Below, one piece after another: positions 27,913-51,200 of a stretch of DNA of 64,000 bases. Numbering within the stretch: position 1 is the first letter of the stretch; every line of letters begins with the position of its first letter. Source of the stretch: an uncultured Salinisphaerales bacterium. GTDB lineage: Bacteria; Pseudomonadota; Gammaproteobacteria; Nevskiales; Nevskiaceae. Below the pieces are notes generated by a model that worked only from the letters and a program-made list of their open reading frames with translations, was not told the DNA's origin and ran no database searches. The position numbers and the translations under genes are program-made. The stretch spans positions 20,720-84,719 of the forward strand of contig CAZHTI010000001.1 in NCBI GenBank assembly GCA_964535755.1, in the 5' to 3' direction.

Positions 27913-28024
27913 GGCGCTCGTGGCTCGGCAGGGCAATGTGGGTGCGGACGTCGCGGTACAAATGCAGGCGCGGGATTATCAGGGATTCCCTAGCCCATCG
28001 CGCGGCAGATGCGTGCCAGAAGCG

Positions 28025-29416: not shown

Positions 29417-29530
29417 TTGCGGGCTCTCCAATGCCCCGGCAGGCCGCGTCTCCAGTGCCGTAGGCTAAAATGTTGCAGTGCAGCGATTCCTGAAGATGTA
29501 CGCCATCGATCAGGCCCTGCGCTGAACTGA

Positions 29531-30957
<1,427 letters not shown>

Positions 30958-30958
<1 letters not shown>

Positions 30959-31515: not shown

Positions 31516-31713
31516 ACGCGGCAAACCATTGCTTCTAGCTCTAGGCGCTGTGGGCCCCGCAAGCGGTACTGATTCGCCCGACTTCCCGACCTAGCTCGGC
31601 ATCGCTGTCGCTCAAGATTGCCGGTTGCGGAGCCCATCATTGCCGCCGTAATGCAGCCGGAACCACCGTCGCGGCGCGCTGCTCTAAGCCCTTCCTCCAT
31701 CGCCAGCTCGCCC

Positions 31714-33561
31714 ATGCAACGCCTACTGATCGCCCTTAGCCTATGGTTCGCGGTTTTACTTCCGGCTCAGGCCTACAGCGTCGTCAACGGGCAAATCCGT
31801 GACACCAACGGGCAAGCGGTTGAGTTGCGGGGCATCAATTGGTTTGGCTTTGAGACTGAAACCCTCGCCGCCCACGGCCTCTGGAAGCGCAATTGGAAGG
31901 AGCTGATTGCCCAGATCAAAACCCTCAACTTCAACGCCGTTCGCCTGCCGATTTGTCCTTCTACTTTGCGCGGCGCTGCGGTGTCCGGCGTAGATGGCGC
32001 GCTCAACCCGGACTTGGTGGGGCTTAACTCGCTGCAACTGCTGGATGCGTTCATCAAAGAGTTCGATCGGCAGGGGATTTATGTGCTGCTCGACCACCAT
32101 CGCCCCGACTGCCAAGCGCAGAGCCAGCTCTGGTATACCGACTTCTACTCCGAGCGCGATTGGATCAACGATTTACGCCTGATGGCGGAGCGCTATCGCC
32201 GCGTGGGGAGCGTGCTGGGCATAGATCTCAAAAACGAGCCGCATGGTGTGGCGACTTGGGGCTCGGGCGATAAAACCACGGATTGGAATCTTGCCGCCGA
32301 GCGCGCTGCATCAGAAGTGCTGGCAGTCGCTCCGAACTGGCTGGTGTTCGTCGAGGGCATTGGCCACACCAAGACGTGCACCAACACGCCCGCACACTTC
32401 TGGGGCGAAAACCTAGAGGTCTACGACTGCGCGCCGCTGAATATCCCGCGCCGCAACTTGGTGCTATCGCCCCACGTTTATGGGCCGGATGTGGCGGAAA
32501 TGCCGTACTTCAAAGCACCGAACTTCCCCGCCAACATGCCCGCCGTCTGGGACGCCCACTTTGGCCAGCACAGCCTGCGCGGCCACGCCGTGGTGCTGGG
32601 GGAATTCGGCGGTGGCTACGGCCACTGCGCGACTTTGCAAGACCGAACCTGGCACAACGCCTTGGTTGACTACCTCATCAGCCGTGGGATGACCTCCGCC
32701 TTCTACTGGACGCTGAACCCCAATAGCACGCAAACCGGCGGCCTACTCAAGGACGATTGGCAAACCGTGTGGGAGGACAAATACGCGATGCTGCAAGCCC
32801 TGTTCACCCAAGGCCGCAGCCCACTGCCGCCGCCGTTTTTTGGGCCTAAGGAGGCGAGTGCTTGTAGCCTCGCAGCGCCCCACAAGCCCACAGGTGCTCC
32901 AGCGGGCGTAGGCGACCCCAACTTTGCAGGGCCGAGAAAATCCCTAGGGTTCGTGAAGTTAGACGCCCCGCGCACCGTCGCAGGCCAAGTCTGCCGCGAC
33001 GCGGAAATCCGCAATGACGTGAGCAACCCCATCGCTTGGCAGCTTAGGGTTCGCACGACGGGCGCTGCTGGTACGGTGTCTGAGAACGCCAAGGTCGAGG
33101 CGGCAGACGCAGAGGGATTTTGGCTGCGGGGACGCGGCCGCGATGCCACCTTGGCACCAGGGGAGAAGGCCCGCATCAGCATCTGTGCCGCTCAGGGCTT
33201 TGAAGTTGCGCCGCCGAGCCCTTTGCCGATCAAGCCTGCACCGAGCCCCTCGATACCAGCGGCAGCTGCAAAAAAGCCAACGCCGCCAGCCCAACTGGCC
33301 CCTACCGCAGAGGGCTTTAAGGTGGAGATGGTCAAAGACTCAAGCTGGGAGCAAGGCTACTGCGCCCGCGTGCTGGTGCAGAACCAAAGCAACGAGCTGC
33401 GCGCTTGGCGCGTCAGCCTGCCGGTCCACGGCATAGTCCAAAAAGTCTGGAAGGCTAAATCAGAGCACCGTAATGGCCAGTTGCGCGCCCAAGGCGAGGA
33501 CTACAACCGCGCGCTCAAGCCCAAGGAGTCCACCGACTTCGGCTTTTGTGTGGACTATTAA
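31714..33561 (+). CDS. Secreted GH5 endoglucanase (cellulase) with C-terminal CBM2-like module(s)
   Basis: ATG at 31714 gives signal peptide MQRLLIALSLWFAVLLPAQA. GH5 motifs GINWFGFE, acid/base LKNEPHG, nucleophile LGEFGG. C-terminal WEQGYCARVLVQN...DFGFCVDY resembles CBM2. Confidence 0.85.
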   Translation: MQRLLIALSLWFAVLLPAQAYSVVNGQIRDTNGQAVELRGINWFGFETETLAAHGLWKRNWKELIAQIKTLNFNAVRLPICPSTLRGAAVSGVDGALNPDLVGLNSLQLLDAFIKEFDRQGIYVLLDHHRPDCQAQSQLWYTDFYSERDWINDLRLMAERYRRVGSVLGIDLKNEPHGVATWGSGDKTTDWNLAAERAASEVLAVAPNWLVFVEGIGHTKTCTNTPAHFWGENLEVYDCAPLNIPRRNLVLSPHVYGPDVAEMPYFKAPNFPANMPAVWDAHFGQHSLRGHAVVLGEFGGGYGHCATLQDRTWHNALVDYLISRGMTSAFYWTLNPNSTQTGGLLKDDWQTVWEDKYAMLQALFTQGRSPLPPPFFGPKEASACSLAAPHKPTGAPAGVGDPNFAGPRKSLGFVKLDAPRTVAGQVCRDAEIRNDVSNPIAWQLRVRTTGAAGTVSENAKVEAADAEGFWLRGRGRDATLAPGEKARISICAAQGFEVAPPSPLPIKPAPSPSIPAAAAKKPTPPAQLAPTAEGFKVEMVKDSSWEQGYCARVLVQNQSNELRAWRVSLPVHGIVQKVWKAKSEHRNGQLRAQGEDYNRALKPKESTDFGFCVDY

Positions 33562-33595
33562 AAAGCCCTCTGGCGCAAGCGCTGCGACAGAGGGC
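33560..33595. terminator. Hairpin between convergent GH5 and S8 genes (T-run on the minus strand)
   Basis: aaaaa-GCCCTCTG-(15 nt)-CAGAGGGC: 8-bp stem at 33565-33572 / 33588-33595. The A-run on the plus strand is a T-run following the hairpin on the minus strand. Confidence 0.6.
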
Positions 33596-33655
33596 TGGGT
33601 GCGGCGACGTAGGCCGGATGGCCTAGGCCGGGTTCGAGGTGCTGATGGCCGGCAA

Positions 33656-35377
33656 CTAGGGGGCTTTGGTGCAGAGCGTGAAGCTGCCGGTGCCTGCATA
33701 CGAGGCCACGCGCCAGCGGTAGGTCTGCCTGGACGAGCCGGAGGCATAGTTGATGCTCTCGGAGGAGGTAGCCGTCTCTGAGGCCGCTACCTGCGACCAA
33801 GAGCCGTTGTTAGCGCGGCGCTGCAAGTAGAGGTCAAAGTCAGTCCCAGTAGGGCCTGCGAGTGTCGCGAGCAGTGAGCCGTTAGCACTTGGGCGGAAGC
33901 CAGTGGTGTTCGGCGCGTAGAGGTTCTGGCCGGTTGCGGTGAAATTGCCGGTGTAGGTGGTGTACCCCGTTGGGCAAGCACCCGTGCCGCCGCCACCTGA
34001 TCCACCACCAACGGCGGCTGCTGCAGCAATGGCTGCGGGCGCATCCGCGATACCAGTACCGCACTGACTGCAAGTGGCGGGGAAGGCGCGTGCGGAGGAC
34101 TTTAGTGATGCCTCGACTTGGTCAGGGGTGATCGTTGGCTTGACGGCGTACATCAAGGCAGCGACACCGGCGATGTGCGGTGCGGCCATGCTGGTGCCTT
34201 GAGAGAACCCGTAGCTATCCGCCGCAGGCACCGTAGTGCCAGCGTTGTAGGTGGAGAGCACGCCGTTAGGGTCAGTGCTGCTAGTCATTGACCCACCGGG
34301 TGCTGCGATATCGACAATGCTGCCGAAGTTCGAGTACGGCGCTTTCCCGCCGGAGCGATTGACCGCCGCCACTACGACCACGCCGGAGCAGCTCGCAGGG
34401 CTCTGCGTCGAGGCGTCTTTGTTGGCGTTGCCCGCCGTCACCACCACCGTCGTGCCACGGCTACGCGCCGAGTTAATGGCGGCTTGGCTGGTGGCATCGC
34501 AGGAGCCGGAGCCGCCCAAGCTCATGTTGATCACTTTGGCCGGGTTAGCATTTGCGGGCACGCCGCTGACCGTGCCGCCCGAAGCCCAGATGATGCCGTC
34601 GGCGATATCACTGGTGTAGCCGCCGCAACGGCCTAGGACGCGCACCGGCACGACCTTCGCCCCGTAGGCCACGCCAGCAACACCCGAGCCATTGTTGGTT
34701 ACCGCCGCGACGGTGCCGGCCACATGGGTGCCGTGCCAGCTGGAGTTTCTCGCCGCGCTCCCCGTGCCGCATTGCCCTGCGGTCGTCCAGTCGCCCGGGT
34801 CCTGCGCATCGGAATCTCGGCCATTGCCATCGTTACCGACCGTCGCGTCAGAAATCATGTCGTAACCACCAACGATATTGCCGACCAAGTCCGCATGGGG
34901 GCGATAGCCGGTGTCGAGTACCGCAACAACCACCCCACTACCGGTGGTGGTGTCCCATGCCGTATCGGCGCGGATGCCGCCGGCCGGCTCGAAGTAATGC
35001 CACTGCTCGTTGTAGCGGCTGTCGTTCGGCGTGGCGTCGGCTTGCAAGACGCGGTCTTCCTCAACGTACTCGACCTGCGGATCTGCGGCGATAGCCGCTA
35101 AGTAGCCACGCATCGCCGCCGCATCTAAGCGTTTATCGAGCGCCACGAGCTCTGCGCCGGTACCGAGCGTGCGCATAAACGCGGCGTTCAAGCCATGCGC
35201 GCGGCCTGCATGATCAATCGCGGCAGTGCGGCCCTTGCCGCGCAACTCAGCTGCCGCGCTGGCAGATTTATATTTGACGATCACCCGCTGCTGCAGGCCC
35301 AGCGCAGAAACCGTTTGGGCAAAGCAGAGTGCAGCAAGCGCAAGCGCAAGTCGACGCATTTGGGGGGCAGCAGTCAT
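33656..35377 (-). CDS. Secreted S8 (subtilisin-like) serine protease with pre-peptidase C-terminal (PPC) domain
   Basis: Signal peptide (MRRLALALAALCFAQTVSA) and inhibitor-I9-like propeptide. Catalytic triad contexts VAVLDTGY, HGTHVAGT, GTSMAAPH. C-terminal DFDLYLQ PPC-type domain. Start is 35377 or 35359. Confidence 0.9.
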   Translation of the reverse strand: MTAAPQMRRLALALAALCFAQTVSALGLQQRVIVKYKSASAAAELRGKGRTAAIDHAGRAHGLNAAFMRTLGTGAELVALDKRLDAAAMRGYLAAIAADPQVEYVEEDRVLQADATPNDSRYNEQWHYFEPAGGIRADTAWDTTTGSGVVVAVLDTGYRPHADLVGNIVGGYDMISDATVGNDGNGRDSDAQDPGDWTTAGQCGTGSAARNSSWHGTHVAGTVAAVTNNGSGVAGVAYGAKVVPVRVLGRCGGYTSDIADGIIWASGGTVSGVPANANPAKVINMSLGGSGSCDATSQAAINSARSRGTTVVVTAGNANKDASTQSPASCSGVVVVAAVNRSGGKAPYSNFGSIVDIAAPGGSMTSSTDPNGVLSTYNAGTTVPAADSYGFSQGTSMAAPHIAGVAALMYAVKPTITPDQVEASLKSSARAFPATCSQCGTGIADAPAAIAAAAAVGGGSGGGGTGACPTGYTTYTGNFTATGQNLYAPNTTGFRPSANGSLLATLAGPTGTDFDLYLQRRANNGSWSQVAASETATSSESINYASGSSRQTYRWRVASYAGTGSFTLCTKAP

Positions 35378-35484
35378 GGAAAAACTCCAGTGGGAGGTAA
35401 AGACGAGCACCCTAGTTGGTGGGCGCGCCAGAAACCGAACTTCCGACCAACGATGCACATTTCATGCCCAGGCGGCACTTTCCC

Positions 35485-36795
35485 CTACTTGATCCCTGAC
35501 ATCAGCGCATTGAGTGCTCGGTGATATTCCTGCATTGGGAAGGCATCAGCAGATCGGGCAGCGGCATACAGGGCGTCGATGGCAGCACGCCCCGCGGGGG
35601 AGATCGGTGCACCTTGCGCAGCCAAGGCGTTGGCGAATACCACCGACGCCATCGCGGCTTGTTGTGCGGTCGCAAAATCCCCCGCCCGCGCGCCTCGGCT
35701 TGCGCTGCTGAGACTTTGCAGCATCTGCCGCAGTTGCGTCGCACTGGGCGTTTGTTGCTGCATGCGCGGCAGCACATCCCCGCGCAATTGCTGCAAGAGC
35801 GCTGCTGCTTGCGCCTTTAGGGCTGTCGGCGAGGTTTGTGCAGCCGTCTGCAACTGAGCCACCTGCTGCTGCCATAACCGGCCACGCTCTGGGGCCACTG
35901 CGTGCAGCCACAGCCCAAGCCAATGGAGGTGGGTGTCTGCGAGCGGCACAGCGCCAATCGCCGCAGCGCCATTACGGCCCAGCATCGCCCGTCCTGCACC
36001 CATGGCGTGATGACAGGCGGCACAGTCAAAGTGCACGAGCTCAGGAAACACTCCTTGCTGGAAGCGGCCCTCGGCGAGCCCCTCCAGGTACATCTTGGCG
36101 GCGGCACCCTGCCCGATTTGCCAATCCAACATCCCGCTCTGCCCGCCTTTACGGCGCTGGTAGTCGGCATCGCGGTCGTAATGCGGTGGCTGAAGGCTGG
36201 TGAAGGTGTCCAACTCAAACAGTAAGGGCGGATGCCCTGCGGCCATCATCGCGTGGGTAATTGGCCGCTCAGCATTGCCTTGGTGGCAGCTCAGGCAGAG
36301 CTGTGCGCGCTCAGCACCGCGCCAAGTCGGGAACATCCCCATGCGCTCCTTCTCAGCCAGCGAGAGACCTGGGCGCGTGTGCTCTTTGAGCCAGTTCTGC
36401 GCGCCGCCGTGGCAGGTCTCACAGCCGATGCCGTCGCTGGTTTGGAATTTCGCACCACGCAAATTCTGTGGAACCGACTCGGTATGGCAGGACAAGCAAG
36501 CGCGATCCGTCTGCGGGCTAATGCCGAGTGCTTGGCCGATCTTCCGAGAGCGCTCGGAGCCCAGCGTTGCAAAGGCTTTGCCGTGCACGTCTTGGGTTTG
36601 CCAGATGAAGTATTCGTCCCCGCGAATACCGCTTTCACCGAAGGGGACGGTCGCTGCGTGGCAGGTGCCGCCAGCACAGCTAGCCACACCTTCATGGATG
36701 GCGTCTGCGACGGCCGTAGCGGATGCAATCAGCAGGAGTAAACCCGCCCAGCATGGCGACCACTTAGAGGCTGTGCGCTGCTCTCGTTTCGACAT
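35485..36795 (-). CDS. Periplasmic multihaem c-type cytochrome (4 CXXCH + 1 CX4CH) with haem-free helical C-terminal half
   Basis: ATG at 36795 with GGGAG upstream and a signal peptide (WSPCWAGLLLLIASATAVADA). Motifs CAGGTCH, CLSCH, CETCH, CLSCH, CAACH. The last ~170 aa are Ala/Gln/Leu-rich without Cys. Confidence 0.8.
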   Translation of the reverse strand: MSKREQRTASKWSPCWAGLLLLIASATAVADAIHEGVASCAGGTCHAATVPFGESGIRGDEYFIWQTQDVHGKAFATLGSERSRKIGQALGISPQTDRACLSCHTESVPQNLRGAKFQTSDGIGCETCHGGAQNWLKEHTRPGLSLAEKERMGMFPTWRGAERAQLCLSCHQGNAERPITHAMMAAGHPPLLFELDTFTSLQPPHYDRDADYQRRKGGQSGMLDWQIGQGAAAKMYLEGLAEGRFQQGVFPELVHFDCAACHHAMGAGRAMLGRNGAAAIGAVPLADTHLHWLGLWLHAVAPERGRLWQQQVAQLQTAAQTSPTALKAQAAALLQQLRGDVLPRMQQQTPSATQLRQMLQSLSSASRGARAGDFATAQQAAMASVVFANALAAQGAPISPAGRAAIDALYAAARSADAFPMQEYHRALNALMSGIK

Positions 36796-36933
36796 TTCAA
36801 ACTCCCTTTGCGTCTGTATTCGTGTCCGCGTCACAGTTTATGTGCTCAAGCGCTCGCTAGTCCTTGCACTACGCTGAACCGCACTCTAGGCTGATACTCA
36901 AGAAGCCTCAAGACTGACAGGGAGTGTGGGGGC

Positions 36934-39333
36934 ATGGGCACATCTGCAAAAGTTGCCGTCGTAGGTTCAGGGCCAGCCGGCTTGGCTGCCGCAGCGCGGT
37001 GCGCGGAGCTAAAAATCCCGCATATTTTGTTTGAGGCGGAAGGCCACCTCTCCAACACGATCTATCGGTATCAAAAGGGCAAGCACGTGATGGCGGAGCC
37101 TGTGGTGCTGCCGCTGCGGGCATCGCTGGGCTTCGAGGCCGGCAAGCGCGAGGCGATTCTCAGCACATGGGATGCGGGCGCAAAAAAGCTCGGTATCAAT
37201 GTGCTCCACCGCACGGAAGTGACCGAGATCTCCGGCAGCGATGGTCACTTCACGCTCACCACGGCGCTTGGTGAGATTTACACCGCTGAGAAGGTGGTGC
37301 TCGCCATCGGCTTGCAGGGCAACATCCGCAAGCTCGGCTGTGAGGGCGAAGATTTAGAGGCAGTCCAGTACACCCTGGATGACCCCGACGAATTTACGAA
37401 TGAAGCGATCGTCGTTATCGGCGCAGGCGATGCCGCGATCGAAAATGCCGTGGCGCTGTCCGGCCGCAATCGGGTCACCATCGTCAATCGTCGGGATGAA
37501 TTCGACCGCGCCAAGGAAGGCAATAACAGCCTGATTCTCAAGGCGATTGACGATGGCCGCGTGGCGGTAGTGCGCAATGCCGGGGTAGGCAAAGTAGCGA
37601 TGCGCGACGCCCGCAGCGCGGTGATCACGTTGACCACGCCCAACGGTGATTTGGACCTCGACTGCAATCGCGTAATCGCCCGCCTCGGTGCTACGCCGCC
37701 GCGCAAGTTTGTAGAGGCGATGGGCGTGCAGTTCCCCAGCAAAGACCCAAGCTCGGTGCCGGCGGTATCTGCCACGTACGAGAGCAACGTCAAAGGCCTC
37801 TACATCATCGGCGCGCTGGCGGGTTTCCCGCTGATTAAGCAGGCGATGAACCAAGGGTATGAAGTCGTTGAGTTCATCGAAGGCCGCAACCCCGAGCCCG
37901 CGGACACCCCATTGCTGCGCAAGAAGTTTGAGTCCATGCCCGGCTTTCGCTCGGTCGATGCGACCATCGATCGCATCAAGCAGGGCATCCCAGTGTTGAG
38001 CCCGCTCACGCCCCTACAGTTGCGGGAGTTTTTGCTCGACTCCGACATTCGCACGCCCAAGGCCGGCGCGGTGATCTTCAGCCGCAACGACTACTCCGAC
38101 ACCTTCTTTTCGGTGCTGGAGGGTAGCGTCAGCATCGCCATTGACCCCAACGATGACAGCAAGCGCATCAGCCTAGGCGCGGGGCAGTTCTTCGGGGAGA
38201 TGAGCCTGATCTCTGGCCGCAGGCGCTCGGCGACGGTCTATGCCGGTGAACGCGCTGTGCTGGTAGAGACTCCCCGCCGTTCGATGAACAAGTTGATCGC
38301 GAGTGTGGCTGCGGTGAAGCGCGTGTTGGACGAGACCTACCTGTCTCGGGCGATCCAGTCACAGATTGCACCGAATCTGTCCGGCGATTTGCTGAAGGAG
38401 GTCGTGACCTCTGCGACCATCCAAAAATACAAAGCGGGCGAGGTCTTGTTCCGCGAGGGCGAAGCTGCCGACGGCCTGCATATGATCCGCAAGGGCTCGG
38501 TCACCGTGGCGCGCAACATCGGTGGCCGCGAGGCCATCCTCGCTTATGTGCCGGCCGGGCAGTACGTCGGTGAGATGGCCTTGATGACCGAGCAGCCGCG
38601 CAGTGCGACGGTTAAAGCGGCCATCGCCACCGAGACCATTCGCCTCGACGGTGCGGTGTTCAAATCGGTGCTGGCGCGCGACGAAACCCTGCGTGGTCAC
38701 CTCACTGCACTTGCTAAACAGCGGATTGCCGCCAATGCCCGGGTGCGTAGCGACGAAACCGCCAACGGCAATCTGGTGTCGTTTTTGATGAATCAAGGCT
38801 TGGGCGAGGCGACCGACGTCCTGCTCATCGACGAGAGCCTCTGCGTGCGCTGCGACCACTGCGAAAAAGCCTGCGCAGACACCCACGGCGGCCTCTCGCG
38901 GCTAGACCGCGAAGCAGGCCCCAGCTTTGGCTCGCTGCACATCCCCACCAGTTGCCGCCACTGCGAGCATCCGCACTGCATGAAGGACTGTCCGCCGGAT
39001 GCCATCCACCGCTCACCCGGCGGTGAGGTCTTCATTAGTGACGCCTGCATCGGCTGCGGCAACTGCGAGCGCAACTGCCCTTACGGCGTCATCCACATGG
39101 GGGTGACGAGCAAGAAGCAACCCAGCCTCTGGCAATGGCTGATGTTCGGCGGCAAGGAGCCCGGCAATTACGAGGTGCAGTACGACAAAAAGACGGCGGC
39201 GAAAAAAGCCACCAAGTGCGATATGTGCAGGGACCTCCCACAAGGGCCAGCCTGTGTACGCGCCTGCCCAACCGGTGCGGCGATTCGTGTTAGCCCTGAG
39301 AAGTTCATGCGCATCTCCCAGGGTGCTGCCTAA
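36934..39333 (+). CDS. FAD/NAD(P)H pyridine-nucleotide-disulfide-type oxidoreductase fused to two cNMP-binding domains and a four-cluster [4Fe-4S] ferredoxin module
   Basis: 799 aa, AGGGAG upstream of the ATG. GxGxxG motifs VAVVGSGPAGLAAA and VVIGAGDAAIENA. cNMP motifs FFGEMSLISGRRRSATVYA (aa ~355-465) and YVGEMALMTEQPRSATVKA (aa ~475-600). Cys motifs CVRCDHCEKAC, CRHCEHPHCMKDCP, CIGCGNCERNCP, CDMCx8CVRACP (aa 637-778). Confidence 0.85.
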   Translation: MGTSAKVAVVGSGPAGLAAAARCAELKIPHILFEAEGHLSNTIYRYQKGKHVMAEPVVLPLRASLGFEAGKREAILSTWDAGAKKLGINVLHRTEVTEISGSDGHFTLTTALGEIYTAEKVVLAIGLQGNIRKLGCEGEDLEAVQYTLDDPDEFTNEAIVVIGAGDAAIENAVALSGRNRVTIVNRRDEFDRAKEGNNSLILKAIDDGRVAVVRNAGVGKVAMRDARSAVITLTTPNGDLDLDCNRVIARLGATPPRKFVEAMGVQFPSKDPSSVPAVSATYESNVKGLYIIGALAGFPLIKQAMNQGYEVVEFIEGRNPEPADTPLLRKKFESMPGFRSVDATIDRIKQGIPVLSPLTPLQLREFLLDSDIRTPKAGAVIFSRNDYSDTFFSVLEGSVSIAIDPNDDSKRISLGAGQFFGEMSLISGRRRSATVYAGERAVLVETPRRSMNKLIASVAAVKRVLDETYLSRAIQSQIAPNLSGDLLKEVVTSATIQKYKAGEVLFREGEAADGLHMIRKGSVTVARNIGGREAILAYVPAGQYVGEMALMTEQPRSATVKAAIATETIRLDGAVFKSVLARDETLRGHLTALAKQRIAANARVRSDETANGNLVSFLMNQGLGEATDVLLIDESLCVRCDHCEKACADTHGGLSRLDREAGPSFGSLHIPTSCRHCEHPHCMKDCPPDAIHRSPGGEVFISDACIGCGNCERNCPYGVIHMGVTSKKQPSLWQWLMFGGKEPGNYEVQYDKKTAAKKATKCDMCRDLPQGPACVRACPTGAAIRVSPEKFMRISQGAA

Positions 39334-39356: not shown

Positions 39357-40319
39357 ATGTCATCCACCACCGCCTCCAAGTCACCTAAACGCGAGCAATC
39401 GCACAGTGGGTTTTTGCTACATGCCGGACTGCGCTGGGCCAAAGTCGCCGTGTTGCTCTGCATCGCAAGCCTCATCGCCTACATCTGGCACGAGCCAGCT
39501 GATGGCCCCAATGGCGGCACTTGGCTCGGCTACACCTTGGGCGGCTTGGGTGCCTTCCTCATTCTCTGGCTGACCTGGCTGGGCGTGCGCAAGCGCAAAT
39601 ATTCTGGCGGCACTGCGACGGTGAAGGCTTGGACCAGCGCCCACGTTTACTTAGGCCTCTCGCTCATCGTCATTGCCACGTTGCATTGCGGATTCCAGTA
39701 CGGCTGGAATATCCACACGCTCGCCTATGTATTGATGATGTTAGTGATTGCCTCTGGCATTTACGGCATCGTCGTCTATACCCGCCTGCCAGACGCCGTG
39801 ACGCGCCTGCGCGATGGCAACACCCGCGAGGCTTGGATCGATGAGGTGTTTGAGCTCAACCTGCAAAGCGTCAAACTCGCCGACAAAATCGGCCCAGAAG
39901 TGCACCGCAGAATTGTCAGCTCGGTCGAGAAGGTCAGGATCGGCGGCGGTTTGCTGGCGCAGCTCTATGGCAAACCACAATCGGGTGGCGTGCTTGAGGA
40001 CCTCAATCAAGCACTGAAGGATCGGGTGCGTGAGATCAAAGCGCAGACGCCCAGCTTCAACCCGAGTTCTACCGCACAAAGCACCGTGGTGTTTATGGCG
40101 GGGCAAATGACCGCGCTGGATAAATCCGAGGCCGAGGCTGCCCGTCTTCAACAGTTGCTAGATATGGTCGCGCGGCGCAACAGCCTGGTCGCTCGGATCA
40201 ATAAGGACATTGCCCTGCACGCACGCTTGCAGGTGTGGCTGCTCGTGCACGTCCCCCTTACGTTCGCGCTGTTGGCGGCGCTGATCGCGCATGTGTTTAG
40301 CGTCTTCTTCTACTGGTGA
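39357..40319 (+). CDS. 5-TM membrane protein with two His pairs spaced 14 residues (candidate di-haem b electron carrier)
   Basis: 320 aa, five hydrophobic helices. H96/H110 lie in one helix (AHVYLGLSLIVIATLH) and H298/H312 in the last (HVPLTFALLAALIAH). A ~140-aa soluble helical insert precedes the last TM. No family recognised by eye. Confidence 0.65.
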   Translation: MSSTTASKSPKREQSHSGFLLHAGLRWAKVAVLLCIASLIAYIWHEPADGPNGGTWLGYTLGGLGAFLILWLTWLGVRKRKYSGGTATVKAWTSAHVYLGLSLIVIATLHCGFQYGWNIHTLAYVLMMLVIASGIYGIVVYTRLPDAVTRLRDGNTREAWIDEVFELNLQSVKLADKIGPEVHRRIVSSVEKVRIGGGLLAQLYGKPQSGGVLEDLNQALKDRVREIKAQTPSFNPSSTAQSTVVFMAGQMTALDKSEAEAARLQQLLDMVARRNSLVARINKDIALHARLQVWLLVHVPLTFALLAALIAHVFSVFFYW

Positions 40320-40376: not shown

Positions 40377-42230
40377 ATGAAGATTCTCCTCCGCTCGCAG
40401 ACGGCTGATGGCGCGTTACAGGGCGATCAATGGCTGAATGTCCCCACCTTGCGCATCGGCCGCGACGCCGCCCAAGACATCGTGTTGGCCGATTTCCACG
40501 TCGCCCTAAAGCATGCGGAGATCAACCTCAAGCCTGCATTCTTAGGCTTGGGCAGCACCTTGCGCATCGAGAGCCGTTCCAAGTTGCCGGTGTACGTCAA
40601 TGGCGTGCCGGTACATGGTGCGGATTTGTCACTGGGCGATGAAATCCGCTTGGGCAGGTTTAGCTTGCAGGTTGCCAAGCCACAGGCATCCGCCGACGGC
40701 ACTCTGGTGCTCAAGGAAAGCTACGAGGCGCACGACGAGCGCGATGCACAGAAAGCAGGATTAAAGACCACCCTAAGGGCCGCCGGTTGGTCACGTCGGT
40801 CTATGGCATGGCTGCTGTTCATCGTGGTGTTGATCCCAGCGCTGTTGATTCCGGTTTTTTTGCACCTACAGACGCTCGAAGCAGCGCCCCCTGAAGCCCA
40901 GAAGGTCGACCGTGAATACCGTGCGCAAAAGGTGATGGGTTGGGATATCGCTTGGAATTCTGGGCCTATGTCCTCGGCGCACAAGCAGTTAGCCAACGAC
41001 TGTACGGTTTGCCATCAACAACCGTTCCAACAAGTGACGGATGCCAGCTGCAAGGGCTGCCATGCTGAAGTTGGGGAGCACGCAGCCACGGTGGTCACCC
41101 TGCAACACAGCAGCTTTGCCGATCTCAACTGCACCGACTGCCACCGCGAGCACAACGGCGGTGGCGGTGCGGCTGGCGCATCCTCAGGGCACGGCATCAT
41201 TCCGCTGCAAAATCAGTCCTGTACGGATTGCCACGCAGCGCCTGAAGGCCTGCCGGGCAAACAAGTTTTGGCGGTGAGCACTTGGAGCAAAGACCACCCG
41301 CAGTTTTCTATCCAGTTAGCCCGATACGACGCCAACAAAAGCGCATTCGTCTGGAAGGAGTTCCGCCAAGGCACCGCAGACGCGCTGCGGCAGGACACCG
41401 GCATCAAGTACCCGCACGATATCCACCTCGACCCCAAGGGTATTGATGCACCCGGTGGGCGTAAGGTGCTGGAGTGCGTGGACTGCCACCAACTGGCCGA
41501 TGACGGCGTGCAGTTCAAGCCAATTGCCATGGAACCCCATTGCGGCGAATGTCATCGCTTGGACTTTGACCCCGCCGCAAAAGCCCGTGAGCTGCCGCAT
41601 GGCAAGCCTGCGGAGGTGGTGCAAGTCGTCCGTGACCACTATGCCCGCGTCGCACTCGCGGGTGGCGTTACTGAAAAGGGCGCTCCGGCGATCGTGACTA
41701 GCCGCCGCGCACCCGGGCAATCCTTAAGCCCTGCACTCGCCAAGGCCGCACTGCAATGGGCGGATGCACGCGCAGACGTCGCCCTGCGCGATGTCTTTGA
41801 GCGCCGTACCTGCAACTACTGCCACGAGGTGACGAAGCAAAGCGGCGACGCCACAGCACCTTGGCAGATCGCTCCGGTTGCACCGGTGCAGCGGACGATG
41901 AACAGCAGCGTCTTCCCCCACCAAGCGCATGCGACGGAAACCTGCGAAAGCTGCCACGACGTCAGCAAGTCCAAGAAATCTGAAGACGTGCACCTGCCCA
42001 AGATCGAACAATGCCGCGACTGCCACGGCGATACCGGCGCGATGACTGAAGTCGAAGCGGCCTGCCAGACCTGCCACGTGTACCACCTCAATGACTTGAC
42101 TCCCGCCGGGTCTAGCAGCAATTCGGCCAAACCCACTTTGCCCGCGGCGCACCCGGCGATACCCGCTGCCAAGCCCTCTAGCGAGCTCAATACCGTCAAG
42201 CCATCGGCACTACCGGAGCAGAAGTCATGA
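40377..42230 (+). CDS. FHA domain - single TM - decahaem c-type cytochrome
   Basis: 617 aa. The N-terminal ~100 aa are FHA-like (LRIGRDAAQDIVLADFHVALKHAEI...VYVNGVPV...GDEIRLGRFSL). TM helix MAWLLFIVVLIPALLIPVFL. Ten CXXCH motifs follow (CTVCH, CKGCH, CTDCH, CTDCH, CVDCH, CGECH, CNYCH, CESCH, CRDCH, CQTCH). Confidence 0.85.
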   Translation: MKILLRSQTADGALQGDQWLNVPTLRIGRDAAQDIVLADFHVALKHAEINLKPAFLGLGSTLRIESRSKLPVYVNGVPVHGADLSLGDEIRLGRFSLQVAKPQASADGTLVLKESYEAHDERDAQKAGLKTTLRAAGWSRRSMAWLLFIVVLIPALLIPVFLHLQTLEAAPPEAQKVDREYRAQKVMGWDIAWNSGPMSSAHKQLANDCTVCHQQPFQQVTDASCKGCHAEVGEHAATVVTLQHSSFADLNCTDCHREHNGGGGAAGASSGHGIIPLQNQSCTDCHAAPEGLPGKQVLAVSTWSKDHPQFSIQLARYDANKSAFVWKEFRQGTADALRQDTGIKYPHDIHLDPKGIDAPGGRKVLECVDCHQLADDGVQFKPIAMEPHCGECHRLDFDPAAKARELPHGKPAEVVQVVRDHYARVALAGGVTEKGAPAIVTSRRAPGQSLSPALAKAALQWADARADVALRDVFERRTCNYCHEVTKQSGDATAPWQIAPVAPVQRTMNSSVFPHQAHATETCESCHDVSKSKKSEDVHLPKIEQCRDCHGDTGAMTEVEAACQTCHVYHLNDLTPAGSSSNSAKPTLPAAHPAIPAAKPSSELNTVKPSALPEQKS

Positions 42231-44170
42231 GCTTGCGCGCACGCTTTTTCGCGCTGATGACCGCCGCCGTGCTCAGTGCCTGTGGCGGTGGTGGCGGCAC
42301 GAGCCCATGCGATGGCTCTTGCGGCGAGGCCACACCGGTGCGCTTGGAGATCAGCGAGGTTGAGCGGGTGCTCAGCTCGGCGATTGCGGAAGCGCAGGCC
42401 CGTAACGCCGCAGCGACCATCGCGGTAGTGGATCGCGTCGGCAATGTGCTCGCGGTGTACCGCATGCAGGGGGCGGACATCAGCATCGAAGCGCGCACTG
42501 GGTTACCGGTTGAGGGCGGGCTGGAGGGCGTCAACGTCATCCCCGATGGCTTGGTTGCCATCGCCAAGGCGGTGACCGGCGCATTTTTATCGACCGAGGG
42601 CAATGCCTTTACCACCCGAACGGCCAACCAAATCGTGCAAGACCACTTCAATGTCGGCGAGCGCGACCAACCCTCCGGGCCCTTGTTCGGCGTGCAGTTT
42701 TCCTCGCTGGCCTGCTCTGATCTCAACCTACCGTTTGCCGGTAGTCGGCCAACCGTCGGTCCGCAGCGCAGCCCCTTGGGGCTTGGGGCCGACCCCGGGG
42801 GCTTCCCGCTCTACAAGGGCGGCGTGTTGGTCGGTGGCATCGGTGCCGTTGCCGATGGCACCTACGGTGCCGACCTCAACATTAGCGACACCGACCAAGA
42901 CTTGGACGAGTTGATCGCACTGGCCGCCACACGCGGCTTTGAGCCACCTGAGGATCGTCGCGCCGACCGCATCACGGTCGATGCCAAAACCCTGCGCTAC
43001 AGCGACGCCAAACCCTCCGACCTGCGCAGCACCACGGTGCCCGTCTTTAACGCGCTGCCGGCAAATACCGGCGCGCTCATCAGCGTGCGCGGGTATATGG
43101 CGTCAGGCGACACCGCAATCCGCCGTGGCACCAGCTTTGGCCGCCCAGAATCTGGGATTCGTCCGGCCGGCCTCGCAGCTTTTGCGCAACATGATGGCTT
43201 TGTGTTGGTGGATGCCGCCAACCTAGAGCGCTTCCCTCCCCGTGCTGGAGCGGATGCCGCAACGATCGGCGCGAGCAACATACTCAATGCCTCTGAGGTC
43301 ACCACGATCTTGGAAGAAGCACTCAAGCTCGCCAACCGCGAGCGCGCGCAAATCCGCCGCCCCTTGGGTAGCCAGAGCCGCGTCACGATTTCCGTGGTCG
43401 ACACCTTCGGCAGCGTGCTCGGTATTGTTCGCACCCGCGATGCGCCGGTATTCGGCACCGATGTGTCCTTACAAAAGGCGCGCAGCGTGGCGTTTTTCAG
43501 CAATCGAGAAGCCGCCTCAGATTTGGCCTCTACCCCCAACACCACCTACCTAGGCAACAACCAAACCGTCAGCATTGCCGCCTATGTGCCTGCACTGAGG
43601 GATTTCTTAGGCCAGCCCAGCGCGCTGGCAGACGGGGCCTTTGCCTATGGCAACCGCAGCATCGGCAACGTCGCACGGCCATTTTTCCCGGATGGCATCG
43701 ACAACGCCCCGCACGGCCCCTTGTCCAAGCCGCGCGGCGAGTGGAGCCCGTTCTCAACCGGCCTACAGCTCGACCTCGTCAACAGCGCGATCTTGCAGCA
43801 TGTGGTGTTTGTCCTCGGCGGCGGCAACGATGTGGAACCGGGCACATGCACACAAATGCCCGCGACATCCACCGGGCGCAATCGGCTCGCCAATGGTTTG
43901 CAAATTTTTGCCGGCGGCGTTCCCATCTACCGGGGCACCCAGCTTGTCGGTGCCATTGGGATTTCCGGCGACGGTATCGACCAAGACGATTTGGTCGCCT
44001 TCTTGGGTGTTCATAACGCTGGGCAACGGTTGGGCGGCGCGTTGGGCAATGCGCCCAAAGAAATGCGCGCGGACACCATCAACAAAGATGGCAACTTCCT
44101 GCGCTATGTGCAGTGCCCGCAAGCGCCGTTTTTGGACACGGACGAACAAAATGTCTGCGCCGGAAAATAA
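42227..44170 (+). CDS. Lipoprotein with two GlcG/HbpS-like (PF03928-type, haem-binding/DUF336) domains carrying long insertions
   Basis: ATGA overlap with the upstream gene. Lipobox LSAC followed by a Gly-run. Domain 1: IAVVDRVGNVLAVYRM ... GGFPLYKGGVLVGGIG. Domain 2: ISVVDTFGSVLGIVRTRDA...SLQKARSVAFFS ... FAGGVPIYRGTQLVGAIGISGDGIDQDD. Confidence 0.7.
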   Translation: MSLRARFFALMTAAVLSACGGGGGTSPCDGSCGEATPVRLEISEVERVLSSAIAEAQARNAAATIAVVDRVGNVLAVYRMQGADISIEARTGLPVEGGLEGVNVIPDGLVAIAKAVTGAFLSTEGNAFTTRTANQIVQDHFNVGERDQPSGPLFGVQFSSLACSDLNLPFAGSRPTVGPQRSPLGLGADPGGFPLYKGGVLVGGIGAVADGTYGADLNISDTDQDLDELIALAATRGFEPPEDRRADRITVDAKTLRYSDAKPSDLRSTTVPVFNALPANTGALISVRGYMASGDTAIRRGTSFGRPESGIRPAGLAAFAQHDGFVLVDAANLERFPPRAGADAATIGASNILNASEVTTILEEALKLANRERAQIRRPLGSQSRVTISVVDTFGSVLGIVRTRDAPVFGTDVSLQKARSVAFFSNREAASDLASTPNTTYLGNNQTVSIAAYVPALRDFLGQPSALADGAFAYGNRSIGNVARPFFPDGIDNAPHGPLSKPRGEWSPFSTGLQLDLVNSAILQHVVFVLGGGNDVEPGTCTQMPATSTGRNRLANGLQIFAGGVPIYRGTQLVGAIGISGDGIDQDDLVAFLGVHNAGQRLGGALGNAPKEMRADTINKDGNFLRYVQCPQAPFLDTDEQNVCAGK

Positions 44171-46301
44171 TCGCCCGCTGCGCCGCCACGCCTTGGCGCT
44201 CGCGGCCGCGCTATTGGCACAACCGAGTGCAATTGCGCTGCCGAGCTTGGCGGAGCTCAAGGCGGATGGCCAAGCGCTCTCTGCTGCCGCCACCGCGAAG
44301 AGCGCCGCGGCGGCTCAGCAGCCCGCGGAGCAGCCAGCGAGCAAGTCGGCCCAAGCTCATGTCACCGCGCAGCCTCCCGCAGGGAGTCCCGCGAAGCCAC
44401 CTCCAGTCGCAATAGCCTCTGCGGCTAAACGGCATGAGCAGGTCGTCGCACCTGCGCCGAGTTCCGAGTTCTTCTACCGCGCTGGCGAAGCTGCTGATGC
44501 CCACCGGGTGGCCGCCCCTCCTGCGGCCACGTCGCCCCGCCCTAGCCTCAAACAGCTCAGCACGCCGACAACGCCTGCTAGCGCAGACACCGCGTTGGCA
44601 GCAGCCCCAGTCGCTCTGCCCCAGCGGCGGCCAGATCGCAGCGTGCAATATCGAGCAATCCCCAGTGCGGAAGCAGTCGACCCGAACGCTGCGACCGGCA
44701 TCCCCAAACTCGCGCCGCAAGAGGTCCGCAGCCCCACCATCGGCGCACCGGTGCCAGACCGTTGGCGCTTGGTGAATGACTTGGGCCTGCTCAAAGAAAA
44801 CCCGCTCGACCCCTATAACCAGAACACACTGAAGGGCGATAAACCCATCCGTGGCGACGACGAGTTTTTAATTCTCTCGGCCATTGCCGACAGCATCTGG
44901 GAACCACGCCGTGTGCCCACACCGGTGAGCCCGCAGAGCACGACGCGGCCGGGTAGCGTGGATATCTTCGGCGGTAGCACACAGAACGTACTGGCCACCA
45001 GCATCATCGTGCCGATCATTTATTTGAAGGGCGACACCGCGTTTAAACCGCCAGATTACGAGCTGCACTTCACGCCCGCCTTCAACTTTAATCACGTCCA
45101 AGTGGAGGAGAACCGCGCGCTACGCATCAGCCCCGGCGAGAGCCGCACGCGGCGCGAGACCTTCATCGGCGTGCAGGAATTGTTCGCCGACTATCACCTG
45201 CGCAATGTCTCGGACCGCTACGATTTCGACTCCATTCGCGTCGGCATCCAGCCGATTTCCTTAGATTTTCGCGGCTTCCTGTTCCAAGACCTGCCGATGT
45301 CGGTGCGCTTGTTCGGCACCCGCGACAACAACTACTGGCAGTACAACATTCTCTGGGCCCGCCGCTTAGAGAAGGACACCAACAGCCTGCTCAACAGCAT
45401 CAACCAGAAGCTGCGGGATGACGACGTTTTCGCGGTCAACCTGTTCCGGCAAGATTGGCCGGTGGTCGGCTTCACCACCCAAGGCATCGTCGCCCACAAC
45501 GTCAATCGAGAAGGCCAAGAGGTTTACTACAACCGCAATGGCTTCATCGAGCGGCCCGGCTCCTTCGGCTTAGAAAAAGGCCGGAACTACCAAGTGACGT
45601 ATCTAGGCCTCAATGGCGACGGCCACTTTGGCCGCACCAACCTCACCGCTGCGGCCTATTTGGCCGTTGGGCGTGAATCCCGTGGCGCGTTTATCGACCG
45701 CCCACGCGAGGTTTTTGCGGGCTTTGCCGCCGCCGAAGCCTCTTGGGATTTCGACTGGACTCGGCTGCGCGTTTCTGGCCTCTATGCCAGCGGCGACCCA
45801 GACCCATTCGACGATACCGCGAATGGCTACGACGCCATCAACGAGCTACCGCTGATTGCCGGTGCTGACACCAGCTACCACATCCGCCAGAGCATCCCGC
45901 TGATCGGCGGCGGCGGCGTTGCGCTGACCACCCGCAACGGCGTACTCAACAACCTGCGCACCAGCATCCAGCACGGGCAGAGCAACTTTGCCAACCCAGG
46001 AACCGTCATCTTGGGCGTGGGGACCGACTTTGACTTGAGCCCGACCTTCCGCCTGAGCACCAATGTGAACCACGTCCGGTTTGCCGACTCAACGGTGCTG
46101 GAAGTTGCGCGCAACCAAGGCAATATCTCGGAAGAACTCGGCTGGGATGTATCGGTCGCCAGTATCTGGCGGCCGTTTATGACCCAGAACATCGTCATCC
46201 GAGTGTCCTACGCAGAGATGTTGCCCGGCAAAGGCTTTAAGCAGTTATTCCCCGATCAACGGGGTTATTCGATGTTGGCCAATCTGGTGTTTACGTATTA
46301 G
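44151..46301 (+). CDS. Putative outer-membrane beta-barrel protein with Ala/Pro-rich N-terminal linker
   Basis: ATG at 44151 (M171 of the track ORF) gives signal peptide MSAPENNRPLRRHALALAAALLAQPSAIA. aa ~30-200 are low-complexity Ala/Pro/Ser/Gln. The remaining ~510 aa have alternating beta-strand-like patterning and end in NLVFTY (aromatic terminal residue typical of OMPs). Overlaps the upstream gene by 20 nt. Confidence 0.65.
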   Translation: MSAPENNRPLRRHALALAAALLAQPSAIALPSLAELKADGQALSAAATAKSAAAAQQPAEQPASKSAQAHVTAQPPAGSPAKPPPVAIASAAKRHEQVVAPAPSSEFFYRAGEAADAHRVAAPPAATSPRPSLKQLSTPTTPASADTALAAAPVALPQRRPDRSVQYRAIPSAEAVDPNAATGIPKLAPQEVRSPTIGAPVPDRWRLVNDLGLLKENPLDPYNQNTLKGDKPIRGDDEFLILSAIADSIWEPRRVPTPVSPQSTTRPGSVDIFGGSTQNVLATSIIVPIIYLKGDTAFKPPDYELHFTPAFNFNHVQVEENRALRISPGESRTRRETFIGVQELFADYHLRNVSDRYDFDSIRVGIQPISLDFRGFLFQDLPMSVRLFGTRDNNYWQYNILWARRLEKDTNSLLNSINQKLRDDDVFAVNLFRQDWPVVGFTTQGIVAHNVNREGQEVYYNRNGFIERPGSFGLEKGRNYQVTYLGLNGDGHFGRTNLTAAAYLAVGRESRGAFIDRPREVFAGFAAAEASWDFDWTRLRVSGLYASGDPDPFDDTANGYDAINELPLIAGADTSYHIRQSIPLIGGGGVALTTRNGVLNNLRTSIQHGQSNFANPGTVILGVGTDFDLSPTFRLSTNVNHVRFADSTVLEVARNQGNISEELGWDVSVASIWRPFMTQNIVIRVSYAEMLPGKGFKQLFPDQRGYSMLANLVFTY

Positions 46302-46328
46302 CCACAGGACGTGGCAAGGGAGACGAAA

Positions 46329-47012
46329 ATGATGCCCAAATGGATGAGACGCGCAGGAGTTGCCGCGCTATTCGGCCTAACCAGCCTAGGTCTCAACGCC
46401 GCCGATCACGTCGATGCGCCCGGCACGGATACCGCCCCTGGTCGCAACCCACAAGTACTCGGAGCGGACATGGCCGATGTCTTCATCTTCCGCCGAGACG
46501 GTGCCTTAGTCGGTGGCATCACCTTTGCGGGCACCCCCGCACCTCGGTCTAGGGTCGATGGCAGCATCGGCAGCTACGACCCCGATGTGATCTACCTCTA
46601 CAACATCGACACCAACGCTGACGCGCGGCCAGAGTTCGTAGTGAAGATGCGCTTCGGCCGCAATGGTGCTGGTCAATGGGGCGTGGAGTTTGAAGACCTG
46701 CCCGGCGCAGGCACAAAGTATGTATTTGGCCCCGTGGAGACGGTACTGCGCTCACGCAACGGCTTGAAGGTATTTGCAGGCCGTAAGGATGACCCCTTCT
46801 TTTTTGACGTCCAAGGCTTCAACGCCACACTCGCCACTTTTGGTGATGACTCTGCACCCAACGGCACCTTGCAGTTCAATGGCAACCGCGATTCCTTCGG
46901 TAGCCGCAATCTCACGGCCCTCGTCTTCGAGATGGATCTCGTGACCATCGCCACCAGAGCACAAAACAATGAGTTGCGGGTTTGGGCCACCACTGAACGC
47001 CTGATGCGCTAG
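46329..47012 (+). CDS. Secreted DUF4331-family protein (N-terminal-half type)
   Basis: ATG at 46329 with AAGGGAG upstream and a signal peptide. Mature N-terminus AADHVDAPGTD, ADMADVFIF and VFAGRKDDPFFFD match DUF4331 hallmarks as I remember them. Confidence 0.7.
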   Translation: MMPKWMRRAGVAALFGLTSLGLNAADHVDAPGTDTAPGRNPQVLGADMADVFIFRRDGALVGGITFAGTPAPRSRVDGSIGSYDPDVIYLYNIDTNADARPEFVVKMRFGRNGAGQWGVEFEDLPGAGTKYVFGPVETVLRSRNGLKVFAGRKDDPFFFDVQGFNATLATFGDDSAPNGTLQFNGNRDSFGSRNLTALVFEMDLVTIATRAQNNELRVWATTERLMR

Positions 47013-50946: not shown

Positions 50947-51200
50947 GGGAAGGGCTGATCAGCGACGGCAAAAGACGCGCCGCAGTATTGCGGCGAAGAC
51001 TAGAAACGCAAACCTGCTGAAAACAAAGACCGCCAGCACCAAACGCTTCGTCGGCTCAACTGCACCGATGGCGAAGGTAAATATTTACTTTTGCCGACAG
51101 ACTGCCTGCGGTTTGTTGAATCAACAGTCAGGTGTTGCCAGTATCGACGCCATTGATGGCCCAGCGGGGACATCCACATTAACGATTGGGGAATACGCCG

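Follow-up and report, generated by a model that had tools for sequence, protein, structure and literature searches.

A gene at positions 36,934 to 39,333 of the forward strand of a 64,000-nucleotide stretch of contig CAZHTI010000001.1 (referred to as the window), from an uncultured Salinisphaerales bacterium, encodes a 799-residue protein in which a flavoprotein, two cyclic nucleotide monophosphate (cNMP)-binding (CNB) domains and a four-cluster ferredoxin follow one another from the N- to the C-terminus. On balance, this fusion protein is probably the subunit through which electrons enter a conserved, envelope-spanning module for electron transfer; net flow through the module would be outward, and the cNMP domains would act as the gate. 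The gene is followed by those of a membrane protein of 320 residues (mem320), a decahaem cytochrome c, an HbpS-like lipoprotein and a probable outer-membrane protein (Table 1), with junctions of 23, 57, -4 and -20 nt from the fusion gene on.

The fusion gene is an uninterrupted frame of 799 codons with a Shine-Dalgarno sequence (GGGAG) 8 nt 5′ of its start. Neither a transmembrane (TM) segment nor a signal peptide was predicted for its product, which is thus taken to be cytoplasmic. Pfam scans gave matches to cNMP_binding (E 1.4e-38, two stretches), Pyr_redox_3 (E 1e-29) and Fer4_11 (E 3e-11), with Pyr_redox_3/Pyr_redox_2 extending over residues 6-308 and 4Fe-4S dicluster families over residues 630-795; these domain and motif matches lie far above the chance level. 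Profile mapping with Pfam and NCBIfam bears out the domain reading of an earlier note made from the sequence alone (flavoprotein, two cNMP domains, four-cluster ferredoxin), and every residue position that it quoted recurs in the translation, including four Cys groups (C637/640/643/647, C674/677/682/686-P, C705/708/711/715-P and C762/765/774/778-P) and two cassette motifs, FFGEMSLISGRRRSATV at residue 419 and YVGEMALMTEQPRSATV at residue 544. Of the two GxGxxG motifs it had named, the first stands as written (G11-S-G-P-A-G16), whereas the second reads GxGxxA (G163-A-G-D-A-A168).

A homologue search across 5.8 billion proteins returned more than 6000 matches, and the best 120 of these are all about 800 residues long, with query coverage of 96-100% and identities of 62-100%, including proteins from Fontimonas thermophila (71%), Stagnimonas aquatica, Nevskia soli and Solimonas terrae. 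An exhaustive HMMER search of 1.8 billion representatives clustered at 50% identity added about 45 further full-length lineages, down to 32% identity. Mis-assembly of separate genes, which the earlier note had raised as a way for its reading to fail, is ruled out by the more than 100 full-length homologues of about 800 residues together with these distant full-length lineages. The homologues are annotated in their sources as “thioredoxin reductase”, “cyclic nucleotide-binding domain-containing protein” or “4Fe-4S dicluster domain-containing protein”; the architecture is not new to databases. Across an alignment of 34 full-length homologues that reaches down to 30% identity, none of the 16 Cys varies, and neither does either Gly motif. 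From the spread of the homologues and these invariant motifs, the organism is a relative of the Nevskiales, and the fusion architecture is both old and widely distributed.

The N-terminal domain has the fold of thioredoxin reductase (TrxR), with two dinucleotide-binding sites for flavin adenine dinucleotide (FAD) and NAD(P)H. Foldseek retrieved YpdA/Bdr (7a7b, E 6e-25) and TrxR-type ferredoxin-NADP+ reductases (FNRs; 2zbw, 3ab1, 3lzw and 6gar), along with many TrxRs at E ~1e-20, and G11/G13/G16 as well as G163/G165 are invariant across the 34 sequences. An RR..R motif is also present: VTIVNRRDEFDRA aligned with ITLIHRRPQF-RA of 2zbw, bringing NRRDEFDRA opposite HRRPQF-RA. The HRRxxxR motif of TrxRs is linked to NADPH, and its counterpart here suggests that the domain uses NADPH. 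The designation “TrxR-like” is correct for the fold but not for the chemistry, as no redox CxxC is found outside the Fe-S domain, and the lone C136 is not conserved (V in 12, C in 8 and I in 8 of the 34 sequences). Thioredoxin reductase proper (TrxB, TIGR01292) was ruled out on this ground and by a score of 72 bits against a cut-off of 343. Bacillithiol-disulfide reductase YpdA/Bdr (TIGR04018) was likewise ruled out: its active-site Cys14 is Ala in the fusion protein (GGGPCGL in YpdA versus GSGPAGL in the alignment to 7a7b), and the score was 120 bits against 339.9. A TrxR fold with no CxxC in the flavoprotein domain is the combination found in TrxR-type FNRs. The domain shares with these enzymes (B. 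subtilis YumC, 3lzw; C. tepidum, 3ab1; T. thermophilus, 2zbw) and with YpdA the fold and both dinucleotide motifs; the group is NADPH-linked and devoid of CxxC, and FNRs trade electrons with Fe-S proteins. However, identity is limited to 20-22%, and in the fusion protein a ferredoxin is covalently attached, with two CNB domains in between.

The C-terminal domain carries 16 Cys with the CxxCxxCxxxC(P)-type spacing of four-cluster ferredoxins, all invariant in the 34 sequences. Full-length matches were obtained to HycB3 of HDCR (7qv7_A, residues 631-788), to HycB of formate hydrogenlyase (7z0s_B, residues 630-795) and to the NCBIfam HydN profile (residues 630-795), with partial NCBIfam similarity to the N-terminus of AegA/YgfT. 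The earlier note had compared the domain with DmsB, NrfC and HybA; the four-cluster pattern it relied on holds, but the domain is closer to the cytoplasmic HycB, HydN and AegA N-terminus than to these periplasm-facing subunits, and it belongs to none of the equivalogs DmsB, NrfC, HybA and HydN, all scores being far under the curated cut-offs (for instance DmsB 51 versus 214, NrfC 46 versus 378 and HydN 53.9 versus 260 bits). It resembles HycB, HydN and the AegA N-terminus, within the DmsB/NrfC superfamily, in its 16 Cys, four groups, equal spacing and full-domain match, but differs from them in being joined to a flavoprotein and CNB domains and in standing outside any hydrogenase, formate dehydrogenase or complex iron-sulfur molybdoenzyme.

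The most likely recipient of electrons from such a ferredoxin would be mem320. An AlphaFold2 (AF2) model of this protein comprises five TM helices and a cytoplasmic helical insert. In an alignment of 42 homologues, H96/H110 and H298/H312 are invariant, forming two H-x13-H pairs on TM3 and TM5, and the pairs are kept even in homologues of about 20% identity. Two helices that each bear two His about 13 residues apart constitute the classical bis-His pattern of di-haem b cytochromes. Weak matches to the cytochrome b561 family (PF01292) were found in 38 of the 42 family members, the best at E 4.4e-7, and the Fontimonas orthologue is labelled “ferric reductase like” in UniRef. By these features mem320 looks like a transmembrane electron carrier with two b haems, and the positive-inside rule would place the first His of each pair (H96, H298) towards the cytoplasm and the second (H110, H312) towards the periplasm.

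The next gene encodes a 617-residue cytochrome with 10 CXXCH motifs, a single TM segment, a cytoplasmic forkhead-associated (FHA)-like N-terminal domain (E 2.8e-9) and a Cytochrome_C7/c3 Pfam match. Exactly 10 CXXCH and the same N-terminal domain recur in 16 of 16 decahaem orthologues. The GR, H and NG elements of the FHA-like domain (positions 40377-40700; orthologues in loci L001-L028) are kept.

BLAST of the cluster proteins against six-frame open reading frames (ORFs) of related loci revealed that these genes travel together. The order fusion gene, mem320, decahaem cytochrome, HbpS-like gene and outer-membrane protein is maintained in about 13 loci, with short or overlapping junctions (the HbpS-like gene is syntenic in at least 13), and this ordered cluster was found in Gamma- and Alphaproteobacteria and in Acidobacteriota: Fontimonas, a Lysobacteraceae metagenome-assembled genome (MAG), Chromatiales, Steroidobacteraceae, Wenzhouxiangella, Stellaceae, Rhizomicrobium, Rubrimonas, Thermoanaerobaculia and several unclassified MAGs. 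The neighbours of the fusion, which the earlier note had proposed to inspect, are thus a conserved set that includes mem320 and the decahaem cytochrome. In many genomes the cluster is accompanied by a secreted protein of about 1250 residues that combines ten CXXCH with an LVIVD beta-propeller repeat; tblastn detected no copy of it in the window.

Architectural variants further delimit the core of this module. Relatives with Fer4 and Pyr_redox_3 but no cNMP domain (434-452 residues; L023 and L025) adjoin a mem320 homologue, in L023 together with a multihaem cytochrome, and relatives without the flavoprotein (two cNMP domains and Fer4, 460-480 residues; L083 and L084) are followed by a mem320 homologue and then by a membrane-anchored cytochrome with four or seven haems. 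One protein of 1110 residues (P0123) runs as one polypeptide from the flavoprotein through both CNB domains and Fer4 into a mem320 part (E 3e-49 to mem320). From these variants, the Fe-S protein, the His-pair membrane protein and the cytochrome are argued to cooperate physically, and this triad is read as the conserved core of the module. FHA domains recur either on the cytochrome or on the flavoprotein itself, P0131 and P0135 having one or two canonical copies at the N-terminus of the flavo-Fe-S protein. The existence of variants without CNB and FHA modules, or with these placed differently, argues that both are regulatory add-ons. Among P0123, P0131, P0135, P0129 and P0171, one variant has a repeat insertion of about 400 residues between and around the CNB domains, and in another the flavoprotein is followed by an additional ferredoxin domain. 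The earlier reading as an electron-input enzyme, from NAD(P)H to Fe-S, gains support from the conserved synteny with mem320 and the decahaem cytochrome and from the P0123 fusion. It is plausible and has strong comparative backing, which does not extend to control by cNMP.

For the latter, the evidence lies in the two central domains. Domain A matches the CNB domain of MloK1 (residues 350-472) as well as PKA regulatory subunits and PKG, and over residues 375-584 the two domains together correspond to the CNB-A/CNB-B tandem of the latter two; for domain B, the best Pfam stretch is 497-583. Both contain the G-E ... R-[ST/A]-A signature of the phosphate-binding cassette (GEMSL..RRRSATV and GEMAL..PRSATV), and cassette B aligns residue for residue with YFGERALLYDEPRSATI of Plasmodium PfPKG and FGELALLYNAPRAATV of PKA. 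Loss of the ligand-binding Arg and Glu, named earlier as a sign against cNMP binding, was not observed on alignment: they are kept in both cassettes, and the Gly-Glu and Arg-Ser-Ala-Thr-Val residues are invariant among relatives of at least 62% identity. Across the wide alignment, domain A retains G421 in 34/34, E422 in 33/34 and R431 in 22/34 sequences; in domain B, G546, E547 and R556 are invariant in close relatives, with E547 found in 21/34 and R556 in 25/34 of the wide set. Whether cAMP or cGMP is preferred is not readable from the cassette sequence. The fusion protein shares two consecutive CNB domains with canonical cassettes with PKA regulatory subunits and PKG, and with the mycobacterial cAMP-dependent acetyltransferase Pat, a bacterial cNMP-regulated enzyme, the possession of a CNB domain, which in Pat allosterically controls a non-transcriptional output; it differs from all of them in that its putative output is an electron-transfer chain. 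To our knowledge, there is no characterised precedent for an electron-transfer chain controlled by CNB domains, and none turned up in the literature searched. Elsewhere in the window, a 908-residue MMPL/RND-type (sterol-sensing-domain-like) transporter, 8984-11710(-), ends in a C-terminal cNMP-binding domain (E 4.8e-16) and represents a second non-transcriptional cNMP effector within the same 64 kb.

Direct control of electron flow by a cyclic nucleotide, as the earlier note had suggested, is something we infer purely from these domains. In the strongest form of the proposal, cAMP or cGMP would directly gate a protein electron wire and switch on NOX-like export of reducing power from the cytoplasm through a hitherto unrecognised family of 5-TM di-haem b proteins, the FHA-decahaem cytochrome and an outer-membrane conduit, making this a widespread, regulated system for extracellular electron transfer or periplasmic reduction in aerobic heterotrophs; this is put forward tentatively, as possible rather than probable. 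The alternative that the cNMP-like domains bind another ligand, or serve only for dimerisation or as linkers in a constitutive enzyme, draws on the CNB folds of CooA, NtcA and CprK, which bind other ligands, on the degenerate cassette residues of distant homologues and on the cNMP-less sister architectures that retain the same neighbours. It is nevertheless considered unlikely, since G-E...R-S-A-T-V occurs exactly as in PKG and PKA in both cassettes, here and in all relatives of at least 62% identity.

In the favoured scheme of gated outward transfer, NAD(P)H, and more probably NADPH in view of the RR...R motif, would reduce FAD in the TrxR-fold domain, from which electrons would pass to the four [4Fe-4S] clusters of the HycB-like domain and on to mem320, where two stacked b haems, each held by an H-x13-H pair or shared between the pairs, would span the membrane. 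The b haems would deliver them to the periplasmic ten-haem domain of the 617-residue cytochrome, and beyond it the HbpS-like lipoprotein, the outer-membrane barrel and, in many genomes, the decahaem-LVIVD protein might lead to a periplasmic or extracellular acceptor. The PKA-R-like CNB pair, lying between the FAD and Fe-S modules, would most likely work as a ligand-operated hinge that permits or blocks either FAD-to-cluster transfer or docking on the membrane partner. With a net flow directed outward as in NOX/FRE or Fre-MsrQ, the module would consume NAD(P)H and dissipate membrane potential, and the need to control such a drain would explain tight regulation by cNMP and FHA-like domains.

Outward flow is favoured because it would be redox-downhill and aided by the inside-negative potential, whereas the reverse would be doubly uphill with no coupling subunit. 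Reversed flow would have the periplasmic cytochromes take electrons from an extracellular or periplasmic donor, for instance Fe(II); these would end up in quinone, or else reach FAD and NAD(P)+ by way of mem320 and the Fe-S domain. Ferrigenium, an oxidiser of Fe(II), does have a related gene trio, for which a connection of Fe(II) oxidation with the inner membrane was proposed, an FHA decahaem protein is common in Gallionellaceae, and the neighbouring cytochrome is c554-like. Nonetheless, transfer to low-potential Fe-S clusters, FAD and NAD(P)+ would run redox-uphill and oppose the inside-negative potential, the cluster holds no energy-coupling subunit, and the family is abundant in heterotrophic Nevskiales and Xanthomonadales, which makes inward flow decidedly unlikely.

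Improbable enough to be given little weight is the view that the protein is a redox and second-messenger sensor that regulates the membrane cytochrome complex instead of supplying electrons in bulk, its FAD and clusters reporting the NAD(P)H/NAD(P)+ ratio or O2. The heavy regulatory load (two CNB domains, FHA in the partners) and the lack of an identified terminal enzyme would suit a sensor, but a four-cluster wire with 16 invariant Cys is typical of conduits such as HycB and HydN, and the natural fusion of the wire to a two-His-pair membrane protein in P0123 fits electron transfer as well. A stand-alone soluble reductase of the AegA/YgfT type, acting on a soluble substrate beside unrelated neighbours, is barely credible: the partial similarity to the AegA/YgfT N-terminus is outweighed by synteny that spans phyla, by recurrence of the triad in truncated architectures and by the P0123 Rosetta-stone fusion.

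Several observations weigh against an electron-input subunit gated by cyclic nucleotides. The Fe-S domain of the AF2 model of the fusion protein has a predicted local distance difference test (pLDDT) value of only about 45, and because of this low confidence the inter-domain geometry is not interpretable. For mem320, all Pfam matches fall below the gathering threshold, the window protein itself reaching E 0.028 for PF01292, and profile scans assigned no Pfam or NCBIfam family above threshold; since Foldseek against the PDB gave no significant neighbour for the model (best E 0.19), the di-haem assignment draws on the His pattern and the sub-threshold Pfam matches. In the FHA-like domain, Ala replaces the phosphothreonine-binding Ser of SxxH in the window protein, and this position varies in 14 of 16 orthologues, so the domain may not be a phosphothreonine reader. 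P0123 is a single cluster representative and could reflect sequencing read-through. The most distant members do not all have the cassette Arg and Glu (R431 22/34, E547 21/34), and relatives without cNMP domains exist, from which it follows that gating is not essential to the core chemistry. Finally, no cyclase or kinase was found among the approximately 35 ORFs of the window covered by a non-exhaustive scan.

The cluster can be related by description to two sets of genes in the literature. Elbon et al. named a “ptdABCDEFG” operon whose function “remains completely unknown” (bioRxiv 10.1101/2023.11.21.568154). Its PtdE/F/G-type products follow the order seen here, namely a cNMP/4Fe-4S protein, then a ferric-reductase-like TM protein, then a decahaem cytochrome, with an adjoining tetrahaem c554-type cytochrome and, in the cluster, a porin-like protein (here 44151-46301). 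The lettering in that preprint is inconsistent, as PtdC is an FAD/NAD(P) oxidoreductase and PtdD a tetrahaem cytochrome in the main text whereas supplementary file 2 has “ptdC, tetraheme”, and its supplementary tables hold no details on PtdE (bioRxiv 10.1101/2023.11.21.568154). There are clear differences: the preprint describes a separate FAD/NAD(P) oxidoreductase (PtdC) and two clusters, as against a fused flavoprotein and four clusters here; the pentahaem PtdA (beta-sandwich) was not identified in the window; the HbpS-like gene goes unmentioned in the preprint, and its examples are marine. The second set is a trio in Ferrigenium straubiae consisting of a [4Fe-4S] protein, a 5-TM protein and an FHA-nonahaem cytochrome, which was expressed under all conditions tested and whose function was left unresolved (bioRxiv 10.64898/2026.01.22.701106). 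Common to this trio and the cluster are a multihaem cytochrome with one TM segment and a cytoplasmic FHA domain, a 5-TM protein that InterPro does not match, and a [4Fe-4S] protein of the cytosol; the trio has nine haems rather than ten, and its authors favour inward flow.

The proposed route, from cytoplasmic NAD(P)H through flavin and two bis-His b haems across the membrane to an outside acceptor, is that of NOX/FRE and Fre-MsrQ. Unlike in those systems, the dehydrogenase here has the TrxR and not the FNR fold, sits on a separate polypeptide and is followed by four interposed Fe-S clusters, mem320 has 5 TM helices with no significant similarity to the FRD fold, and the acceptor would be a decahaem cytochrome. 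Functionally, the system also resembles porin-cytochrome conduits, although its own parts come from other families than those of either kind. In the literature searched, no paper was found that characterises the fusion protein or proposes cNMP gating, and searches under the Pfam names or with FHA or HbpS did not retrieve the architecture. As the family is catalogued and the gene cluster is noted in two preprints, what is new is the proposed mechanism, in which a known functional logic appears in regulated form and with unfamiliar components.

Table 1. Features of the gene cluster, with positions in the window unless a locus is named.
Feature	Position	Strand	Basis
Divergent periplasmic cytochrome c, c554-like; PtdD (or “ptdC tetraheme”)-like	35485..36834	-	4 CXXCH + 1 CX4CH
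Divergent intergenic region, 99 nt, presumed promoters	36835..36933	.	position between divergent genes
PtdE-like cytoplasmic flavo-iron-sulfur protein, 799 aa	36934..39333	+	intact ORF, Pfam/NCBIfam domains, no TM, homologues
TrxR-fold FAD/NAD(P)H two-dinucleotide-binding domain without redox disulfide, aa 1-330	36934..37923	+	Pfam, Foldseek
cNMP-binding domain A, aa ~345-470, cassette FFGEMSLISGRRRSATV	37966..38343	+	Pfam cNMP_binding; MloK1 CNB domain match
cNMP-binding domain B, aa ~476-600, cassette YVGEMALMTEQPRSATV	38359..38733	+	Pfam best stretch 497-583
Four-[4Fe-4S] ferredoxin domain, 16 Cys, aa 630-795	38821..39318	+	Cys groups, HycB/HydN matches
PtdF-like 5-TM membrane protein (mem320), 320 aa, putative di-haem b carrier	39357..40319	+	His pairs, AF2, PF01292
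PtdG-like protein, 617 aa: FHA-like aa ~20-100, TM 139-170, periplasmic decahaem cytochrome c	40377..42230	+	CXXCH count, Pfam
HbpS/GlcG-like lipoprotein, 647 aa	42227..44170	+	lipobox LSAC; PF03928 E 7e-22, 3 stretches
Secreted protein, 716 aa, probable outer-membrane beta-barrel (PtdB “porin”-like?)	44151..46301	+	signal peptide, C-terminal ...NLVFTY
Decahaem-LVIVD protein, ~1250 aa	L012:1485-5288; L011:6256-9981; L001:19178-22400; L003:19036-22403		after cluster

The probable outer-membrane protein, whose C-terminus resembles a beta-barrel signal, gave no Pfam or NCBIfam match; its homologues are syntenic and annotated as hypothetical, apart from the Fontimonas one, which is named “Alginate export” in UniRef. 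An ORF of 886 residues at 43641-46301(+) extends too far upstream, into the HbpS-like gene; the protein really begins, with a signal peptide, at 44151. On the other side of the fusion gene, which it also adjoins in L001, L004, L011 and L012, the c554-like cytochrome matched 1bvb (E 1.7e-4) and likely has its true start at M14, near 36795. The intergenic region between the two genes contains no match to the sigma-70 consensus, and a promoter and terminator scan was uninformative. Directly after the cluster lies a pair of DUF4331 genes (46311-47012 and 47024-47677, both +, with gaps of 9 and 11 nt) that match different halves of the profile (159-236 and 250-421), either as a split gene or as a two-part variant; as no synteny of the pair with the cluster was seen in the other loci examined, it was not counted among the parts. 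Further away, genes for a class I fumarase, a class II fumarase and an adenylosuccinate lyase stand side by side and are followed by a DUF7931 gene (26377-30958), and secreted hydrolases, comprising a GH5 cellulase with CBM2 and two large S8 subtilases, flank the cluster (31618-35458 and 51186-53651).

If correct, the proposed role would make this system an allosterically switched electron-transfer chain in which cyclic nucleotides steer reducing power and not the reading of genes, and it would define a new family of transmembrane di-haem carriers. It would also assign a job to a cluster carried by thousands of environmental genomes of the Nevskiales, Xanthomonadales, Steroidobacterales, Alphaproteobacteria, Acidobacteriota and Gallionellaceae, which two preprints flag as a possible player in iron or nitrogen cycling.

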